Positions 5,077 to 19,483 of a stretch of DNA of 64,000 bases are shown piece by piece. Made by a program: the position numbers and the translations under genes. The DNA lies in the IMG/VR virus record IMGVR_UViG_3300027983_002388. One strand, given 5' to 3'. How positions within the stretch are numbered: position 1 is the first letter of the stretch; each line of letters opens with the position of its first letter. The notes under the pieces are model-generated. The model saw only the letters and a program-made list of their open reading frames with translations. It ran no database searches and was not told the origin of the DNA. The DNA comes from a virus.

Positions 5077-5281
5077 TCATCTCATCAGGGGTCATCTCAA
5101 TTCCACTCTCGGCGGCATGAAGTCTTAAATCAAACTTTTCCTTATTTGACATAAGACCAACGGGCTTGCGATTGAGATTTCTCTTCAAACTGCGTAGTCT
5201 TTTAAGAATGCCGAGAGCCTGCTTGGGCGTATATTCTTTGCCCAATTCAGCCAACCTATTGCGAAGTTCATTCTCGTTCAT
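5027..5281 (-). CDS. Hypothetical protein
   Basis: 84 aa ORF coupled to the upstream gene. Confidence 0.6.
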   Translation of the reverse strand: MNENELRNRLAELGKEYTPKQALGILKRLRSLKRNLNRKPVGLMSNKEKFDLRLHAAESGIEMTPDEMNDVMEIIIQIQEADFE

Positions 5282-6018
5282 TGGACTTCCTCGAACTCGT
5301 GTGGGAACATATCTCTAAATGTACGGACAACTAAGTCCGTAATGCACGGTTTATAGAGATCAGGATCGAAATTCATTCTTTTATAATCTTCCGGCTTCAG
5401 AATTGCCGCAATATGCGGCGACATCGCAATATAGTACGGACTGATTTTGCCGAAATTAACCCAGCGAAAGATGTTGTTGTTGATGTAGGACTCCCGGTAC
5501 TTTTCAAGACTTGGACTGGCACCAAAAGTTTTGGCAAAGAACTCTTTGGTTCGCTCAAGTCCTTCGATGGCTTTGATAACGCCGGGACCAATAGGCTGGG
5601 ATATTTCGGACGGTTTCGCAGAGATGGCATCATATTTTCTTTTCCATAGTTTCCACCGCTTCCAGGCTTTTTCTCCCACCAAACAATTGGTATCGATGAG
5701 AGGATGACCTTTGCCGGTATTGATGTGTCGGAGAACATCAAGCTGCGCCCGGACATAAAAGGGATATTCTTTTTCTTCGAGTACGCCCTGTGTTTCACGA
5801 GCCAGCTTGTAGCAGACTTTGAATATCAGGGACTTCCGAGGATCGCCCTGCTTCATGGTCGTATGCTGATATTCAGGGAATACTTTACGACTTCTATCGA
5901 GCCAGAGCAAGCACAATTTATATGCTTTCGCCTCAAGTTCATCCATTTCGTAGTCAACAATTGCATCGAGACGCATATCTTTGATCTCCGGGAGTTCTTC
6001 TTTTTTGTTTTCAGTCAT
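5278..6018 (-). CDS. Hypothetical phage protein
   Basis: 246 aa ORF with GAGG RBS. Confidence 0.75.
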   Translation of the reverse strand: MTENKKEELPEIKDMRLDAIVDYEMDELEAKAYKLCLLWLDRSRKVFPEYQHTTMKQGDPRKSLIFKVCYKLARETQGVLEEKEYPFYVRAQLDVLRHINTGKGHPLIDTNCLVGEKAWKRWKLWKRKYDAISAKPSEISQPIGPGVIKAIEGLERTKEFFAKTFGASPSLEKYRESYINNNIFRWVNFGKISPYYIAMSPHIAAILKPEDYKRMNFDPDLYKPCITDLVVRTFRDMFPHEFEEVQ

Positions 6019-6069: not shown

Positions 6070-7032
6070 TCAGAGAATGGCTCTCACAATAGCAGAATAA
6101 TCAGTTTGATCCTGACCTTCTGTGCCATTCCAAGTTTCATTGATTTTTCTATCACCCTTTGCATTCTGCGACACATTTTTGTCGATCCAATATTTGCTCT
6201 CAACTGCCGAGAGATGCTTAATATTCATGCCCATTTGCGGAGCAAAATCAGCAGGCAACTCTGGCGTGAAACAAATCGTAGACCACAATGAAGGAGGAAT
6301 TGCCAATACGACAATATCAGCTTCGTGGATCGAACCATGAGCATCAACAACAACGACGGATGGCTCGGTGATGATGTGAACTACGGGGCAATTCAAGATC
6401 AATCGAGTGCCTAATTTTTGAGCAAACTTCAAAGCGAATTGCTGATTGCCGCCCTTTGTGCGATAGCTCTCTGTATCGGCCCAAAATTTATCGAAACCAC
6501 CGCCTCTGACGAGTACGATATTGCCCAACAAACTTTGTTTATCGGTAGAGACGCCGTTGTCACTTGACACTTGAATATCAAACAAATATTTGGCAATAGA
6601 CGAAGCATCTTGAGTGTGAATCCACTCTCGCATGGATATATTGTCCAAATATTCAGCTTGTGGCGACAGCCAAGGTTGATTTACGTCTATGTTTTCAGCC
6701 AATACCGATAATGCAATTTGCATTTTGAATATTTCTGATTTGATATTTTCGTATTCACCTTGCGTCAACTTTTGATTTTGCAAAATGATCGGCGTTTCCG
6801 CTTCACTATCTTCGGCAAGGAGAAACTCCAAACCAAATTCACGAGCGTATTCGATCAAGCAATGGTGATGAGAGCCAATAAGCTCTCCACCGAATTCGAC
6901 GTTCATGCCAGAGATGAAATCGTCTCGACTGTATACTCGGCCACCAACTCGATTACGAGCTTCCAAGATTTCGACAGTGTGACCAGCGGTCATAAGCTCG
7001 TATGCACAAGCAAGACCGGAGAATCCTTCCAT
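6070..7032 (-). pseudogene. Truncated flavin monoamine oxidase-family gene
   Basis: GFSGLACAYEL, LEARNRVGGR and EFGGELIG motifs; first strand of the GxGxxG fold is missing and the ORF stops before the C-terminal FAD-binding segment. Confidence 0.7.
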
Positions 7033-7099
7033 AGTAAAAAAATAACACTACCGTATTTATGCGCAACAACCAAACTATAACAAAAAACAACGATGCGAA

Positions 7100-7660
7100 T
7101 GAATGGAAGCGGTAAAAATACACGAAATCAGGCTTGATCTGCATGAGCTTCAGGTCTAGGATATTCACGTTCGGTGAAATAAGCGTGTCCAAATAACCGA
7201 ACATAAAACCTAAAAAGGCATACAGGTAATCGCTGTCGAGGGTAAAACTTCTTCAGATTTCGGAAAGCCTTAGACACTACAGCCCCAATACCCCAGATTG
7301 GTTCGAGGGCCTGATTTACTGGATAGGGTTTCTTCCTCAACAGAGGTCTTAGGTGGCAATGGGCCGACGTGTAGCGGCTAATCGGAGAGCAATCTCCGAG
7401 GATTGAAAAGAGCTAGGATTCAACACCCACCAACGGCGTGCCTCGTCGCTCAGATAAATCGAGGCTGGGATAAATCACAAAGAAACCGATATAATCCGCT
7501 GAACCTATATTACGCCTACCCGGAAGGGTGAGTGTAAATCAGAAAGAGCTTAGAGCTAACTTATTGTTGGGATTACAGCCGACTTTTCGGCTATTGTATA
7601 AGTGACTAATTTCAGTTACTTCTACAATAGATAATCCCAATAATAAGAAGGCTCTTTTTG
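7100..7660 (+). ncRNA. Candidate large structured non-coding RNA (~550 nt)
   Basis: No credible ORF; nested long-range stems (7125-7133/7309-7317, 7327-7334/7480-7487, 7560-7575/7632-7647), GCAA and GGAA tetraloop hairpins, G-U pairs favour + strand, U-run at 3' end. Confidence 0.65.
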
Positions 7661-7728
7661 TATTATAAACTAATTTACAAGAAGCGCTTGTTGTACAACA
7701 AACAAAGAGGCAACGTGACAGAACAGTC

Positions 7729-7757
7729 TTGCAATCAAAGGGTTTGCGTCTTATACT
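7729..7757 (+). promoter_or_regulatory. Sigma70-type promoter
   Basis: TTGCAA-17 nt-TATACT upstream of the PolA-like gene. Confidence 0.65.
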
Positions 7758-7818
7758 TAAAATGAAATGTGCCTCCCGTTGGCACGCACGCACGCACTAA
7801 ACCGCATGATTGAGGCAC

Positions 7819-9129
7819 ATGGATCACTCTCAACTGGCAAAGGCTCTATCAGATTCGATGGGGCCAAATGTGTATATCTGTTGTAAGCCGGAAGTTCTTG
7901 ACTTCACGGATCGGGTAGTTGTTCCTGAACTGCAAATATTCAGCCAGAGTGGGCTAGTCACGATTATGCTCACGGATGAAATATTGCCGATGCTTTTGCC
8001 TATGCTTCGATTGAGCGTATTTGGCAAGGGCAACAAGATTGTCACTTGGAATTGGAAGAACTTTGTAAGTTTCGTTCTGGCCAAGACTGGCAAGTCGTAT
8101 TCCATTGATGGGGCTATTATCGACTTGAAGATAATCGAAACTTATTGTGGGCGCAAGTTCAAAGCTCCCAAAACACTGATCGAGGCCATGAACAGGTTGA
8201 AAGATTTAATCACCACAGGTATGTGGAAAGAGGTTGAGTCTGTATATCGCAAGGTTCATATTCCCCTCATCACCACGGTTATCCCGCATCTTGAAACCAC
8301 AGGTATTCTCAACACTCAGTTGGGCAATAAGGTTTATGCCTATTACGAGATCAATGGCCAGGAGAATGGCCGTCTGAAGTGTTCTGGCGAGTATCAGCAG
8401 GGCTATGTGCCGCACGCCATGAAGCCAGAAACGAGGCAAATTCTAAAGCCTCGCACAGCCGATGAGTTGTTCATGGTCTTTGACTACAAGGGCATGGAAG
8501 TCTTCATGTTGGCTTGGATGAGCCAAGACCCGCTCTTGATGGAGCTTTGTCGTGAACCGGATGTTTATTTTGCCTTGTTCGAGAAGATTACCGGCAAAAA
8601 GTGCGAAGGAAAAAATGATCGTGAAATGGCGAAAAAATTCTTTCTGCCGGTTATATATGGACAGTCGGCTTATTCATTAAGTCAACGCTGCGGTGTCGCT
8701 TTAGATCTCGCAGAGATTATTACAGAACGCATTGACGCTTTGTTTCCGGCTGCTTTGGCCTTCATCGAGGGTTATCAGAAGCAGCTTCAAGAACTCGGAT
8801 ATGCCAAAGACATATTTGGCAAACGCCGCTCTAGCTTCGAGGAAGGCAAAGAATATTCTGTCAGAAATTTTGCAGTTCAGTCACCAGCATCCGTTGTGTG
8901 CCTGGAAAAGTTAGCCCACCTATATTTCGCCCTCAAAGATAAAACCGATCTCGCCTACACCGTCCATGACGGTTACGCTGTGTATGCAACGAAGGAGAAC
9001 TGGAAGACCATATACAAAATTGGTCGTGATGTTCTTACTGGCGATTCCGATTTTTGTCCCGGTTTACGACTTAGAGTAACTTGTCGTGCCGGTCGCAATC
9101 TTGATGACCTGAAGTTACTCCGCACCTAG
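7819..9129 (+). CDS. Family A DNA polymerase-like protein (polymerase domain, degenerate N-terminus)
   Basis: ENGRL, motif A DYKGME, motif B REMAKKFFLPVIYG, GYAKDIFGKRR, NFAVQS, motif C TVHDG. Confidence 0.85.
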   Translation: MDHSQLAKALSDSMGPNVYICCKPEVLDFTDRVVVPELQIFSQSGLVTIMLTDEILPMLLPMLRLSVFGKGNKIVTWNWKNFVSFVLAKTGKSYSIDGAIIDLKIIETYCGRKFKAPKTLIEAMNRLKDLITTGMWKEVESVYRKVHIPLITTVIPHLETTGILNTQLGNKVYAYYEINGQENGRLKCSGEYQQGYVPHAMKPETRQILKPRTADELFMVFDYKGMEVFMLAWMSQDPLLMELCREPDVYFALFEKITGKKCEGKNDREMAKKFFLPVIYGQSAYSLSQRCGVALDLAEIITERIDALFPAALAFIEGYQKQLQELGYAKDIFGKRRSSFEEGKEYSVRNFAVQSPASVVCLEKLAHLYFALKDKTDLAYTVHDGYAVYATKENWKTIYKIGRDVLTGDSDFCPGLRLRVTCRAGRNLDDLKLLRT

Positions 9130-9136
9130 AGGACCA

Positions 9137-9694
9137 ATGTTAGACATTTGCATAAATTACAGTATCAACGAAGAAGAGTACCTAGAGCTTGAACATCGTT
9201 TCGGTCGTCTCTGTTGGCACGCCGCTCACGAACTCAAGAAAAAGAACTCTCGCAACAACTACACCGATGATCCCGAAGATATTAAGCAAGAACTCCAGAT
9301 GTCTATGCTTCGGGCCGGTAGCTATTACAAGCGACAGATATACATTGAAAAATGTCTTGCCGTTACAAAAAAATATGCTACTGACCCTCTCATGCAACAT
9401 ATCATAGAAGAGTTAGAGAGCTTATGGGCGAACCGAACTCGACATGGCGCAAATCGCCAAAAGTTTGGGACGTTTCAAGAGCAGCTACTCCAAAAAATCG
9501 TTCGGGAGATTGTCCCGAAGGATGAGCGGCCCAATAAGAAAGAAAACTTGAAGATCGACGCCAAGTTTGCTACTTATTGCAAAGCTATTGTTTGGAATGG
9601 CCAGAAAAGCATGGGCAAAAAGATAACCAGAGAGAAAGCAATCCGATCTGGCCAAGTAAGCCTTTCCGAATTCGATTACTTGGGTACGGTTTGA
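9137..9694 (+). CDS. Sigma70 region-2 / T4 gp55-like sigma factor candidate
   Basis: FGRLCWHAAHELKKK..NYT..EDIKQELQMSMLRA and KFATYCKAIVWN resemble sigma regions 2.1-2.2 and 2.3-2.4. Confidence 0.5.
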   Translation: MLDICINYSINEEEYLELEHRFGRLCWHAAHELKKKNSRNNYTDDPEDIKQELQMSMLRAGSYYKRQIYIEKCLAVTKKYATDPLMQHIIEELESLWANRTRHGANRQKFGTFQEQLLQKIVREIVPKDERPNKKENLKIDAKFATYCKAIVWNGQKSMGKKITREKAIRSGQVSLSEFDYLGTV

Positions 9695-10919: not shown

Positions 10920-12467
10920 ATGCGTGATCTGACCCCAGAGGAGCAAGCGAAACTTGAAGCGATTTCCGACCCACAGGCTAATGCCAAAGTAAAATTTGCC
11001 TGGGACGACACCTTTCAGCGAAAGCTGATGGGAATGTTGTTGACCGACCAATATATGCTCATCCAAGCAATGGATAAGCTAGAGTCGGGATACTTCAGCA
11101 ACGAAGCACACGTTTTGATTTGTGATATATTGTTGAAGCATTTTGCCGTTCATAAGGCAATCCCTGAAAAATGGATCATTGAAAATGATCTCAAAGAAAA
11201 ACTTAAAGACCGTGACGCCAGTGTTCAATTGCACTTCTTGGCAGAACTCCATTCTGTTTATGACTACTATGTTCCCGGTTTAGAAACACGGGAATATTTG
11301 ATTGATAAAATCACGTTTTTTGCAAAAGTACAAGCTGTAAAAAAGGCATTTGGTACGTCTCTCGAACTGATGGCAGAAGCCCCTGAGTCTGAAAAAACCT
11401 GGGCTGCTGTTTATGAAGAAATGCGAAAAGCAATGCTTATCGACCGGAGTTATGAGCCGGGCGTTGAATACTTCATGAACTTGGATGAGATGTTTTTAAG
11501 AATGGATCAAGTCTTTGAAGGCAAAGATAGATTCACTTCTGGTTTCGCTCCCATTGATGAAGCACTCACTGGTGGCGGGCTATTCAACGGACAGATCGCT
11601 TCGTGGATTGGATTGCCCGGAACAGGTAAATCACTTGCGCTTGTGCGTGGGGCCGTTCAGAATGTCATTCTGGGGCATAAGGTTCTCTATCTCACGATGG
11701 AAATGGATGAGCTTGGCATCATGCAGCGATTCACATCGCAGTTCGCCAAGTTGGACATCAATAATCTGCGTGGCGTCAAAGACGAAGTATATCGCACAGT
11801 AGAGGAATTTAAGAAGGGTTGGGACGATCCCAACTTACTTCACGTCAAGCAGTTCCCTGGTGGCGAAATGGATGTGAACGGCATCCGTGCATATATCGCT
11901 CAACTCGAACTACGAAAATTCAAACCCAACTTGGTCATTATTGACTATGTTGGCGAAATGAAAGACGACCCGAATGTCAAAAAATATGAATCGGCATATA
12001 AAATCCTTCGTGATTTGCGTGGTTTTGGTGTCAGCCGTGGGCATTGCACTATGACTTGCGTACAACCGAACGCTTCAGCGGCAAAACTTGAAGTAGGCCA
12101 ATATATCGACGAGTCTAACATCGGCACTTCGTTTGACCAGTTCAAGCCTTTGGATGCTTTCTGGAGCATCAACCAGCAGGTTATCGAGAAGGATGCTGAA
12201 GTCGGTCGAGTGTTCGTCATCAAACATCGTAATGGTCGCTCAAGATTTCCATTTAAGATCGGCTTTGACTATAAGCTGGGAACGCTGGATATGTTCTCTA
12301 TCTCGAAGGAGAGTTATCGAGAACGCATGAATCTGGTTCAGGAAAAGAAGGCTGATGAAGTCACGATGGACAACATTGATACTGGTGCGCCGCAGCCTGG
12401 GAAAAAACAAAGAAGCAAAAGAGGATTCAAAGGTGACGATCCGATGGAAGATACTTACGAGGCTTAA
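10920..12467 (+). CDS. Replicative DnaB-family helicase (T4 gp41-like)
   Basis: Walker A GLPGTGKS, YLTMEM, IIDY, KHRNGR. Confidence 0.9.
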   Translation: MRDLTPEEQAKLEAISDPQANAKVKFAWDDTFQRKLMGMLLTDQYMLIQAMDKLESGYFSNEAHVLICDILLKHFAVHKAIPEKWIIENDLKEKLKDRDASVQLHFLAELHSVYDYYVPGLETREYLIDKITFFAKVQAVKKAFGTSLELMAEAPESEKTWAAVYEEMRKAMLIDRSYEPGVEYFMNLDEMFLRMDQVFEGKDRFTSGFAPIDEALTGGGLFNGQIASWIGLPGTGKSLALVRGAVQNVILGHKVLYLTMEMDELGIMQRFTSQFAKLDINNLRGVKDEVYRTVEEFKKGWDDPNLLHVKQFPGGEMDVNGIRAYIAQLELRKFKPNLVIIDYVGEMKDDPNVKKYESAYKILRDLRGFGVSRGHCTMTCVQPNASAAKLEVGQYIDESNIGTSFDQFKPLDAFWSINQQVIEKDAEVGRVFVIKHRNGRSRFPFKIGFDYKLGTLDMFSISKESYRERMNLVQEKKADEVTMDNIDTGAPQPGKKQRSKRGFKGDDPMEDTYEA

Positions 12468-18319: not shown

Positions 18320-19483
18320 ATGGATCATCAAAAATTGATTTTGTTGCTAGAGCAAGCCATTGAAATTATAAAAGAGGCAGCAGTAGCAATTGAACCGGCA
18401 GTAGCAATTGAACCGGCAGTAGCAATTGAACCGGCAGTAGCAATTGAACCGGCAGTAGCAATTGAACCGGCAGTAGCAATTGAACCGGCAGTAGCAATTG
18501 AACCGGCAGTAGCAATTGAACCGGCAGTAGCAATTGAACCGGCAGTAGCAATTGAACCGGCAGTAGCAATTGAACCGGCAGTAGCAATTGAACCGGCAGT
18601 AGCAATTGAAACGGCAGTAGCAATTGAACCGGCAGTAGCAATTGAACCGGCAGTAGCAATTGAACTGGCAGTAGCAATTGAACTGGCAGTAGCAATTGAA
18701 CCGGCAGTAGCAATTGAACTGGCACTAGCAATTGAACTATTAAAAAGTGAAGAGTGGCCTGAAGCTGTTCCAGATTTTTTGATTTGTGAAGACACAGAAT
18801 TAGATAAAATGGAAAGAGGCGAAGGAATTCTGAGTTACATCAGTGAAAATTTGGAGAATAAAACATTTTTAGATTTCGGATGTGGCGAAGGGCATGTTTC
18901 GCACCTAGCATCCAGCATGACATCTAAAAGTGTAGGATACGATTTATCTCAGTTGGGTTCATTGGGTTGGGAAAAGGAAACGGAATCAAAATTTTTATTG
19001 ACTACAGATTTCAATAAAGTTCTAAACTATGCGCCCTATGATTTAATTCTTTTATATGACGTTTTAGATCATTGTCAAGATGTTTTAATTTTGCTTAACC
19101 AACTCAAATCTATATGTGGACCAAAAACTAAGGTTTACGTGCGATGCCATAGCTGGATGAGTCGTCACGGCACTCACTTGTACAGAAAATTAAATAAGGC
19201 TTGGGTACATTTGTTCTTCACAGATGAAGAACTTAGTGCAATGGGATTGAAACCAGAATATACTAGGAAGTATTTTTTTCCAATAAATACTCAAAAAAAA
19301 TGGTTTTCTGATTCTGGGTTTGAAATAATTCATTCAAGCATAGTTAAAACTGAAGTCGAGTCGTTTTTTTCCAAACCGGAGTTAATTTCAAGACTTCCAA
19401 TTGAGTTCAAAGATTGTACATACTTACCACCAGAATTTCAAATGAGTCAAGTTTTTAATGATTATGTATTAAAGGTAATTTAA
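18320..19483 (+). CDS. Class I SAM-dependent methyltransferase with N-terminal repeat tract
   Basis: FLDFGCGEG and YDLILLYDVLDH motifs. Confidence 0.85.
   Translation: MDHQKLILLLEQAIEIIKEAAVAIEPAVAIEPAVAIEPAVAIEPAVAIEPAVAIEPAVAIEPAVAIEPAVAIEPAVAIEPAVAIEPAVAIEPAVAIETAVAIEPAVAIEPAVAIELAVAIELAVAIEPAVAIELALAIELLKSEEWPEAVPDFLICEDTELDKMERGEGILSYISENLENKTFLDFGCGEGHVSHLASSMTSKSVGYDLSQLGSLGWEKETESKFLLTTDFNKVLNYAPYDLILLYDVLDHCQDVLILLNQLKSICGPKTKVYVRCHSWMSRHGTHLYRKLNKAWVHLFFTDEELSAMGLKPEYTRKYFFPINTQKKWFSDSGFEIIHSSIVKTEVESFFSKPELISRLPIEFKDCTYLPPEFQMSQVFNDYVLKVI
18380..18739 (+). repeat. 18-bp tandem repeat, 20 copies (GCAGTAGCAATTGAACCG; AVAIEP)
   Basis: Read directly; variant units near the 3' end. 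Confidence 0.97.

Follow-up and report, generated by a model that had tools for sequence, protein, structure and literature searches.

The DNA analyzed here, which we call the window, is the 64,000-nucleotide stretch given by the virus record IMGVR_UViG_3300027983_002388. Between 7081 and 7809 it contains no open reading frame of 90 aa or more, in line with the first-pass annotation, which saw no plausible ORF at 7100–7660, and this interval, referred to below as the slot, lies directly upstream of a gene for a thumb-reduced family A DNA polymerase (mini-PolA, 439 aa; 7810–9129, plus strand) that matches PF00476 over residues 168–431 (E = 9e-24) and has intact catalytic motifs. The gene always found directly after polA encodes 185 aa (9137–9694, plus strand); its product, which by eye we take to be sigma-like, had no convincing match in Pfam, PHROG or PDB. 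A DnaB-like replicative helicase (10920–12467, plus strand) belongs to the same downstream block and is syntenic in all nine long contigs, and genes for an SSB, a UvsX-like protein, a helicase and a separate DNA polymerase are found further downstream. The opposite flank of the slot carries g246 (5278–6018, minus strand), a conserved divergent orphan gene that adjoins the slot in most loci and stays beside it down to ~25% identity. It had no match in Pfam, PHROG or PDB, and a weak Atlas lead (0.88) to a T4 gp59-like helicase loader was dropped after HMM and profile tests gave it no support. The window also contains a flavin amine oxidase-like ORF (6070–7032, minus strand) that looks decayed, with 320 aa against 428 aa in the relative L001 and a 31-nt gap at its start. 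Other relatives have different genes or none to the left of the RNA, and the site thus takes insertions. Farther away, an ORF at 18320–19483 (plus strand) consists of a long N-terminal hexapeptide tandem repeat followed by a methyltransferase-like part.

The slot of the window holds a putative noncoding RNA of ~560 nt (7100–7659, plus strand; predicted ends), which we interpret below as a remodelled form, "type B," of an RNA family found upstream of mini-PolA genes. A possible, weakly defined promoter region precedes it (7060–7081, plus strand): positions 7060–7077 are near-invariant across the window, L001 and L004, and a short A/G-ACT-like element stands 6–22 nt ahead of the anchor of the family RNA in 24 of 38 anchored segments, a count that has no shuffle control. 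Every pairing listed in the first-pass annotation lies at the coordinates given for it, including a 16-bp stem (7560–7575/7632–7647) and the U-run at 7655–7659. The pseudoknots, which it had overlooked, carry the best covariation. They form a core (7169–7277, plus strand), likely homologous to the family RNA, that is built of the helices Pa (7169–7175/7196–7202), Pb (7185–7189/7273–7277), Pc (7208–7211/7224–7227), Px (7215–7219/7267–7271) and Pe (7233–7256); an earlier candidate pseudoknot, 7160–7165/7186–7191, was replaced by Pb because Pb covaries. The core is followed by a lineage-specific central multibranch domain (7311–7542, plus strand) with the predicted closing helix 7311–7319/7534–7542, and by a three-way junction (7552–7659, plus strand) whose 16-bp stem and U-run make a predicted terminator-like 3′ end; a simple terminator scan made no call at this junction. 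From the U-run to the polA start codon the distance is 150 nt, and a sigma-70-like promoter consensus (7729–7757, plus strand), kept in L001 and L002, lies between the two. No iteron-like repeats were found at the element. At 7666–7721, short contigs from the runs X5 and X7 contain a 56-nt step back, explained either by tandem duplication or by an artefact of assembly.

Dense nested pairing had been claimed for the whole element. The pairings exist, but an energy excess over shuffled sequences is found only at the 3′ end. Folding of the whole element gave z scores of −5.14 on the plus strand and −3.66 on the minus strand; by part, the score was −9.4 for 7540–7660, −0.8 for the first 440 nt (7100–7540), −0.96 (about −1) for the central domain (7305–7548) and 0.1 for the core, the values outside the 3′ junction being near chance. 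One of the 13 control windows of 570 nt, each compared with only 8 shuffles, reached a z score of −6.8. The excess of the whole element is thus due to the 3′ junction, and energy by itself shows only a strong terminator-like end.

The element is retained in four viral contigs whose PolA is 89% identical to that of the window; they represent two distinct RNA sequences in addition to the window's, with an overall identity of 85–86%. The identity is 79% in 7105–7283, 96–97% in 7284–7505 and 92–95% in 7541–7657, to be compared with 72% at the four-fold sites of polA (116/161 and 117/162) and 73% in the 5′ flank. Across the three sequences, 6 of the 143 pairs of the structure are altered on both sides, compared with 0–1 in slid controls; of the other pairs, 9 show a one-sided change, 16 are broken (some of these being misaligned columns) and 112 are invariant. 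Five of the six compensatory pairs fall within 7169–7277, one in Pa and two each in Pb and Pe. Coming from three related sequences, this covariation is suggestive and should not be read as a probability. Public data contributed short contigs from eight DNA runs (X12 yielded none) and revealed two further compensatory pairs, 7385/7396 in low-depth contigs of X5 and X7 and 7578/7591, within the 3′ junction, in run X17. The GNRA loops are retained, and a C to T change at 7390 preserves the GNRA pattern. The covariation that the first-pass annotation had proposed to look for is therefore present in the core, and the element is conserved beyond the level of silent sites, but the central domain is almost without covariation. 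We consider it very probable that the stretch encodes a real RNA.

The same comparison bears on two helices of the first-pass annotation. The long-range helix AAATCAGGC/GCCTGATTT (7125–7133/7309–7317) is doubtful, 3 of its 9 pairs being broken in both relatives without compensation; the pairing 7311–7319/7534–7542, an invariant 9-bp alternative, is more likely. The AGCGG/CCGCT helix is likewise doubtful, as it is invariant and competes with 7320–7324/7494–7498. Further copies of type B were not found: a pattern search of the viral contigs returned the same four contigs only, one scan of viral contigs (28 of 64 parts, 118 loci) gave no new type B homolog, and the pattern search of genome_contigs gave a single match that we judged to be due to chance. 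A blastn search of 50,697 phage records gave six matches of 23–31 nt each (E = 7), and the nearest record, G001, had no overlap with the locus.

The element had been proposed to belong to a class of ornate phage RNAs or to form a new one. Its conservation and covariation argue for a new class of large structured RNA. GOLLD, ROOL, OLE and group I/II introns were all unmatched. In the Rfam search, no model reached its gathering score in the window; within 6900–7900, five matches were at chance level (E = 0.54–5.6), and the GOLLD, ROOL and OLE models had no match at E ≤ 10. A CRISPR-repeat-like match (CRISPR-DR9-like; 7371–7409, E = 0.54) lies inside the central domain and was rejected, as its 3′ tag differs in L001/L004 and X5. 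ARAGORN found 0 tRNA genes and no tmRNA across the 64-kb window, which together with the Rfam result rules out a tmRNA, an RNase P RNA and a tRNA. Group I introns are defined by a P3/P7 pseudoknot with a conserved guanosine site, and the segment 7488–7497 bears what we take to be a resemblance to the group I J8/7-P7 motif. A group I intron was nevertheless rejected: no Rfam model matched, the partner strand 7320–7324 immediately precedes a helix, leaving no P3 strand between, and Px, the corresponding helix of the family, shows free covariation. The setting also speaks against either type of intron, as the element sits between divergent intact reading frames and polA is whole and not interrupted. 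A literature search by title and start of abstract, with subscription journals mostly outside its scope, found no paper on the slot RNA, and the main text of 10.64898/2026.09.22.753630 mentions neither PolA nor huge phages. The candidates of Fremin 2023 are 29–151 nt long according to the accessible part of that paper, and its supplements might contain fragments of the slot RNA family (PMC10690425).

To place the window in context, we collected relatives of the 439-aa PolA, at least 168 in number, and extracted from viral and metagenome contigs 83 nonredundant upstream segments, loci with less than 500 nt upstream being excluded. Most loci had 500–900 ORF-free bases upstream of polA. An HMM of a ~450-nt element matched 44 of the 83 segments (20 of them its training set), and the CM R1 added 12 at E ≤ 0.034 (74 loci searched, 30 of them used in training). 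In total, the slot upstream of the thumb-reduced PolA holds a ~450-nt pseudoknotted RNA, "type A," in 56 of the 83 segments, at PolA identities down to ~31%. In two core helices, 12 of 12 tested pairs covary, and 66.5% of the cells are paired compared with 30–49% in slid alignments. In 27 of 37 family members, the loop-to-tail pairings Py and Pz have their best-scoring match where it is expected; a comparison of own and swapped tails gave a weak difference (mean 30.2 vs 26.1, sd 3.9), and only 9 of these 27 rows have a terminator ahead of the family tail, leaving a general model of RNA loops pairing with downstream DNA unsupported. G–U cells are modestly more frequent than A–C cells in the family helices (54 vs 35 of 588). 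An Rfam search of nine family loci returned nothing at E ≤ 0.05. A separate cluster of loci (L272, L273, L276, L285, L286 and L288) has a conserved element of its own upstream of polA, which was missed by both the type A HMM and R1 and may be a third RNA form. The synteny with the polA-like gene that the first-pass annotation had pointed to thus extends over the 56 segments. Of its more speculative module of RNA plus polymerase, the deep positional linkage stands, but the linkage is not obligate, as two relatives carry a protein gene in the slot.

The window RNA has the position typical of the family, directly upstream of mini-PolA and on the same strand. By inspection, its core follows the family order: Pa, which surrounds the Pb 5′ strand, next an A-rich run and Pc, then Px, Pe and a U-rich junction, and last the closing strands of Px and Pb; all five helices are present, and Pa, Pb and Pe covary. 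The type A HMM had no match to the window RNA. A CM built from type A only placed 7213–7279 second among seven matches in the window (11.6 bits, E = 1.8); the same model gave 15.5 bits (E = 0.22) on L211, comparable to the 16.2 and 18.7 bits of the distant members L247 and L196. A descriptor trained on type A ranked the window core 1st of 1296 sites with a thin lead (44.1 vs 43.0) and also ranked the core 1st in L001 and L004 by thin margins, held-out family members scoring 38.6–60.8. The features of the descriptor were picked after the resemblance had been noticed, and the support it lends to homology is therefore only moderate. From this comparison of sequences, we regard the window core as probably homologous to the type A family, the support from the models being modest. 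The window form is without the Pd branch domain, the gap between the 5′ strands of Pc and Px being 3–5 nt in type B versus 55–113 nt between the two strands of Pc in type A; the tail pairings Py and Pz are absent, and no tail motif occurs past 7659. The extra parts of type B are the 7311–7542 domain and the terminator-like junction, for which our searches found no homolog outside the close-relative contigs. A quick tree of PolA (64 rows after exclusion of near-duplicates, the careful search being incomplete) places type B among the carriers of type A, with L142 as its sister; type B is therefore derived, by remodelling or by replacement. Whole RNA domains have been lost and gained between L142 and the window at a PolA identity of 78%.

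Motifs A, B and C of PolA are retained across 67 rows. The structure predicted for the window protein (pLDDT 94) was matched by Foldseek to chains of Klenow, Bst and Pol nu (E = 1e-18 to 1e-21, TMq ~0.7), and the matched Pol I-type chains, with 540–650 residues, are 100–200 residues longer than the window PolA, which keeps a 160-residue N-terminal domain. The thumb stretch measures 38–41 aa in all 67 rows, whether the RNA is present or absent; the idea that the RNA replaces the thumb was rejected, as thumb length is independent of the RNA. In the two relatives with a protein gene, L268 (1570–2685) and L409 (LR756511.1; 1841–3004), the slot is occupied by an ORF of 371–387 aa, which in LR756511.1 fills it to within 10 nt. 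Both keep PolA and LR756511.1 also keeps g246, and R1 had no match on the plus strand of either slot; an R1 match at 477.6 kb in LR756511.1 (E = 0.003) is off the slot and inside coding sequence, and was taken as false. The slot ORF has motifs resembling family A or single-subunit RNA polymerases, with an Atlas score of 0.97 to an unnamed "family A palm" cluster and a weak Pfam match to single-subunit RNA polymerases (E = 0.059); the fold predicted for the L268 protein has low confidence (pLDDT 33). The ORF is possibly a mobile or initiator gene.

The cumulative GC skew of the window has its minimum at 7091, with only 7 kb of sequence to the left of the slot. We compared this with eight long relatives with an open slot, seven of them fragments and all of them kin. 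Two of them have their global minimum within the slot, at 512,998 in G006 (slot 512,592–513,253), a complete genome of 532,729 bp, and at 88,535 in G013 (slot 88,142–89,092). G002 has a local minimum within 300 nt of the slot; the global minimum lies 4–6 kb from the slot in G012 and G015, 49 kb off in G011 (local minimum 3.7 kb off) and 33 kb off in G007, and that of G014 is also away from the slot. As the genes switch strand at the slot, the four-fold sites of plus- and minus-strand genes were measured separately. The keto-skew shift at the slot then ranks at 0.4% of positions in G006, 1% in G013, 3.6% in G002, 4% in G015, 9.7% in G011, 16% in G007, 32% in G012 and 73% in G014; the rank is 11% in the RNA-less LR756511.1, and in the window the shift is positive in both gene-strand classes. 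T–A shifts are zero or positive in all, and G–C shifts are mixed, with the GC component often in the wrong direction. Fisher combination over the eight relatives gave 2e-4, a value that is overstated because the genomes are kin and the positions autocorrelated. R1 had a clear match in 4 of 10 long contigs, each time in the slot only, and no match in G012 and G014; in the slot of G006, which R1 missed, all eight family helices are fully paired and in order. Unlike G006, LR756511.1 shows a near-monotonic fall of cumulative GC skew over 565 kb with no reversal, which suggests that the RNA-less lineage replicates by a different mode. On these compositional signals, we lean slightly towards the slot being a replication origin. 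The RNA sits where the strand bias flips and may thus help the phage begin DNA copying.

The explanation that we favor, tentatively and by analogy with ColE1 and T4, is that of an origin RNA priming the small PolA; a role of the RNA in firing the origin is proposed with the same reserve. Transcription would start at ~7090–7100, proceed toward polA and end at the U-run near 7659. The knotted core would fold cotranscriptionally and keep the RNA on the origin DNA as an R-loop, a PolA of low processivity would briefly extend the RNA 3′ end, and the DnaB-like helicase and the separate replicative polymerase of the phage would then take over. Overall, the RNA would open the DNA and hand a primer to the neighboring thumb-reduced PolA. 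The conserved noncoding stretch, the linkage to PolA, the skew minimum and the replication genes nearby count for an origin RNA. Against it count the coincidence of the skew switch with the switch in gene orientation, the relatives whose skew switch lies away from the slot, the possibility of an origin there that works without the RNA, the terminator-like stem with a separate promoter, the RNA-less relatives, the missing tail pairings of the window RNA and the modest homology of the core.

Next in probability, though unlikely, is a stand-alone, trans-acting large RNA, a scaffold or decoy like the orphan ornate phage RNAs, placed in a divergent promoter gap. The terminator-like end and the separate polA promoter would suit such an RNA, as would the persistence of PolA without it, its remodelling inside a clade whose PolA changed little, and its many long-range pairings, which are typical of compact RNAs. 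A trans-acting RNA could relocate, however, yet R1 places it in the slot only in the four long contigs with a clear match, and in several genomes the slot coincides with the skew minimum; an origin explains the skew better than a stand-alone ornate RNA does. A role of the RNA as a PolA subunit, be it as a thumb substitute, a template or a loading platform, is in our view improbable. The short thumb in 67 of 67 rows with intact catalytic motifs, the fold matches to Pol I fragments 100–200 residues longer and the deep linkage between RNA and PolA are consistent with a missing part supplied by the RNA, and CCPol, another cut-down enzyme, needs a protein partner for priming, according to the accessible part of its description (PMC7581432). 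The thumb is, however, equally short in L268, where the slot is an ORF, and RNA domains were exchanged between L142 and the window while PolA remained 78% identical.

Hardly more credible than a PolA subunit, and hardly less, is a cis-regulatory leader or attenuator of the block of polA, the sigma-like gene and the helicase, with the terminator-like stem as a switch. The RNA is on the same strand and always immediately upstream, competing helices share the strands 7309–7319 and 7494–7500 in the window, and 16 of 33 slots have no sigma-70-like promoter between the RNA and polA. The window, L001 and L002 do, however, have such a promoter-like site after the U-run, and one is present in 17 of 33 slots (12% of shuffles); the start codon is 150 nt away from the U-run, and the competing helices lack support from covariation. 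Least probable of all is an origin element acting at the DNA level, through protein sites and hairpins of single-stranded DNA, with no functional RNA and with the 3′ stem an ordinary terminator. It would account for the first 440 nt folding no better than shuffles, for a central domain that is conserved in sequence with almost nil covariation and for the merely modest excess of G–U over A–C in the family helices, but interleaved pseudoknots that covary freely across PolA identities of 31–90%, the retained GNRA loops and the lack of iteron-like repeats argue against it.

If an origin RNA primes the small PolA here, a broader proposal can be made, one that we put forward as a long shot: the huge phages of this clade would fire their origin through a dedicated ribonucleoprotein, in which a multi-pseudoknot RNA holds on to the origin DNA and supplies a thumb-reduced PolA. 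The RNA would be modular, its knotted core retained and its other parts exchanged in the window lineage, and in other lineages a small polymerase-like protein would have taken its place in the slot. An RNA-based initiator would then be interchangeable with a protein one. For the question of how 500-kb phages begin to replicate, the locus offers a site, an RNA and an enzyme that can be examined in vitro. Even without a role at an origin, the slot RNAs make up a large uncatalogued RNA family, and the domain-swap variant of the window delimits a minimal core of ~110 nt, a size that makes structure and function work tractable.

ROOL RNAs, at about 600 nt, are close in size to the window RNA. As far as the accessible text of 10.1101/2024.12.08.627333 describes them, GOLLD, ROOL and OLE resemble it in being large, multi-pseudoknotted, phage-borne and of untested function; tRNA islands are often found close to GOLLD and ROOL, whereas the window has no tRNA and the family RNA sits before polA. 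A further hallmark of GOLLD and ROOL is an RNA-only homo-multimeric cage. ColE1 RNA II, in the part of the source available, primes Pol I ~550 nt from its promoter (PMC5043065). Like the window RNA, it is a structured noncoding RNA of ~550 nt at an origin (a predicted one here), and in both cases the enzyme likely to extend the RNA belongs to family A; the window RNA differs in having no sequence or Rfam similarity to it, a phage-encoded thumb-reduced PolA and a multi-pseudoknot core. RNA II runs on through its origin and forms a persistent hybrid, whereas the window RNA has a terminator-like end followed by a separate promoter, and the stem and U-run at 7552–7659 argue against run-through in the window lineage. 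ColE1 also has an antisense RNA I over the 5′ end of RNA II; a consensus scan of the window found no promoter-like site on the minus strand near 7200.

The polymerase of T4 is of family B, and its origin transcripts are not known to be conserved folded RNAs. The origin R-loops of T4 prime leading strands, according to the accessible part of the source (PMC3016281). The window resembles T4 in coming from a large T4-like phage that has genes for a helicase, an SSB and a UvsX-like protein, in which an origin transcript would prime one leading strand. The CCPol of SCCmec, a cut-down PolA that requires a protein partner for priming, belongs to a CCPol-MP-Cch2 system that resembles the window, in the portion of the report available, in that its reduced family A polymerase shares an operon with a helicase, lies beside a putative origin and acts at initiation (PMC7581432). 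CCPol is described there as having no exonuclease domains and as priming de novo with a protein, whereas the window PolA keeps its 160-residue N-terminal domain and has an RNA as its candidate partner.
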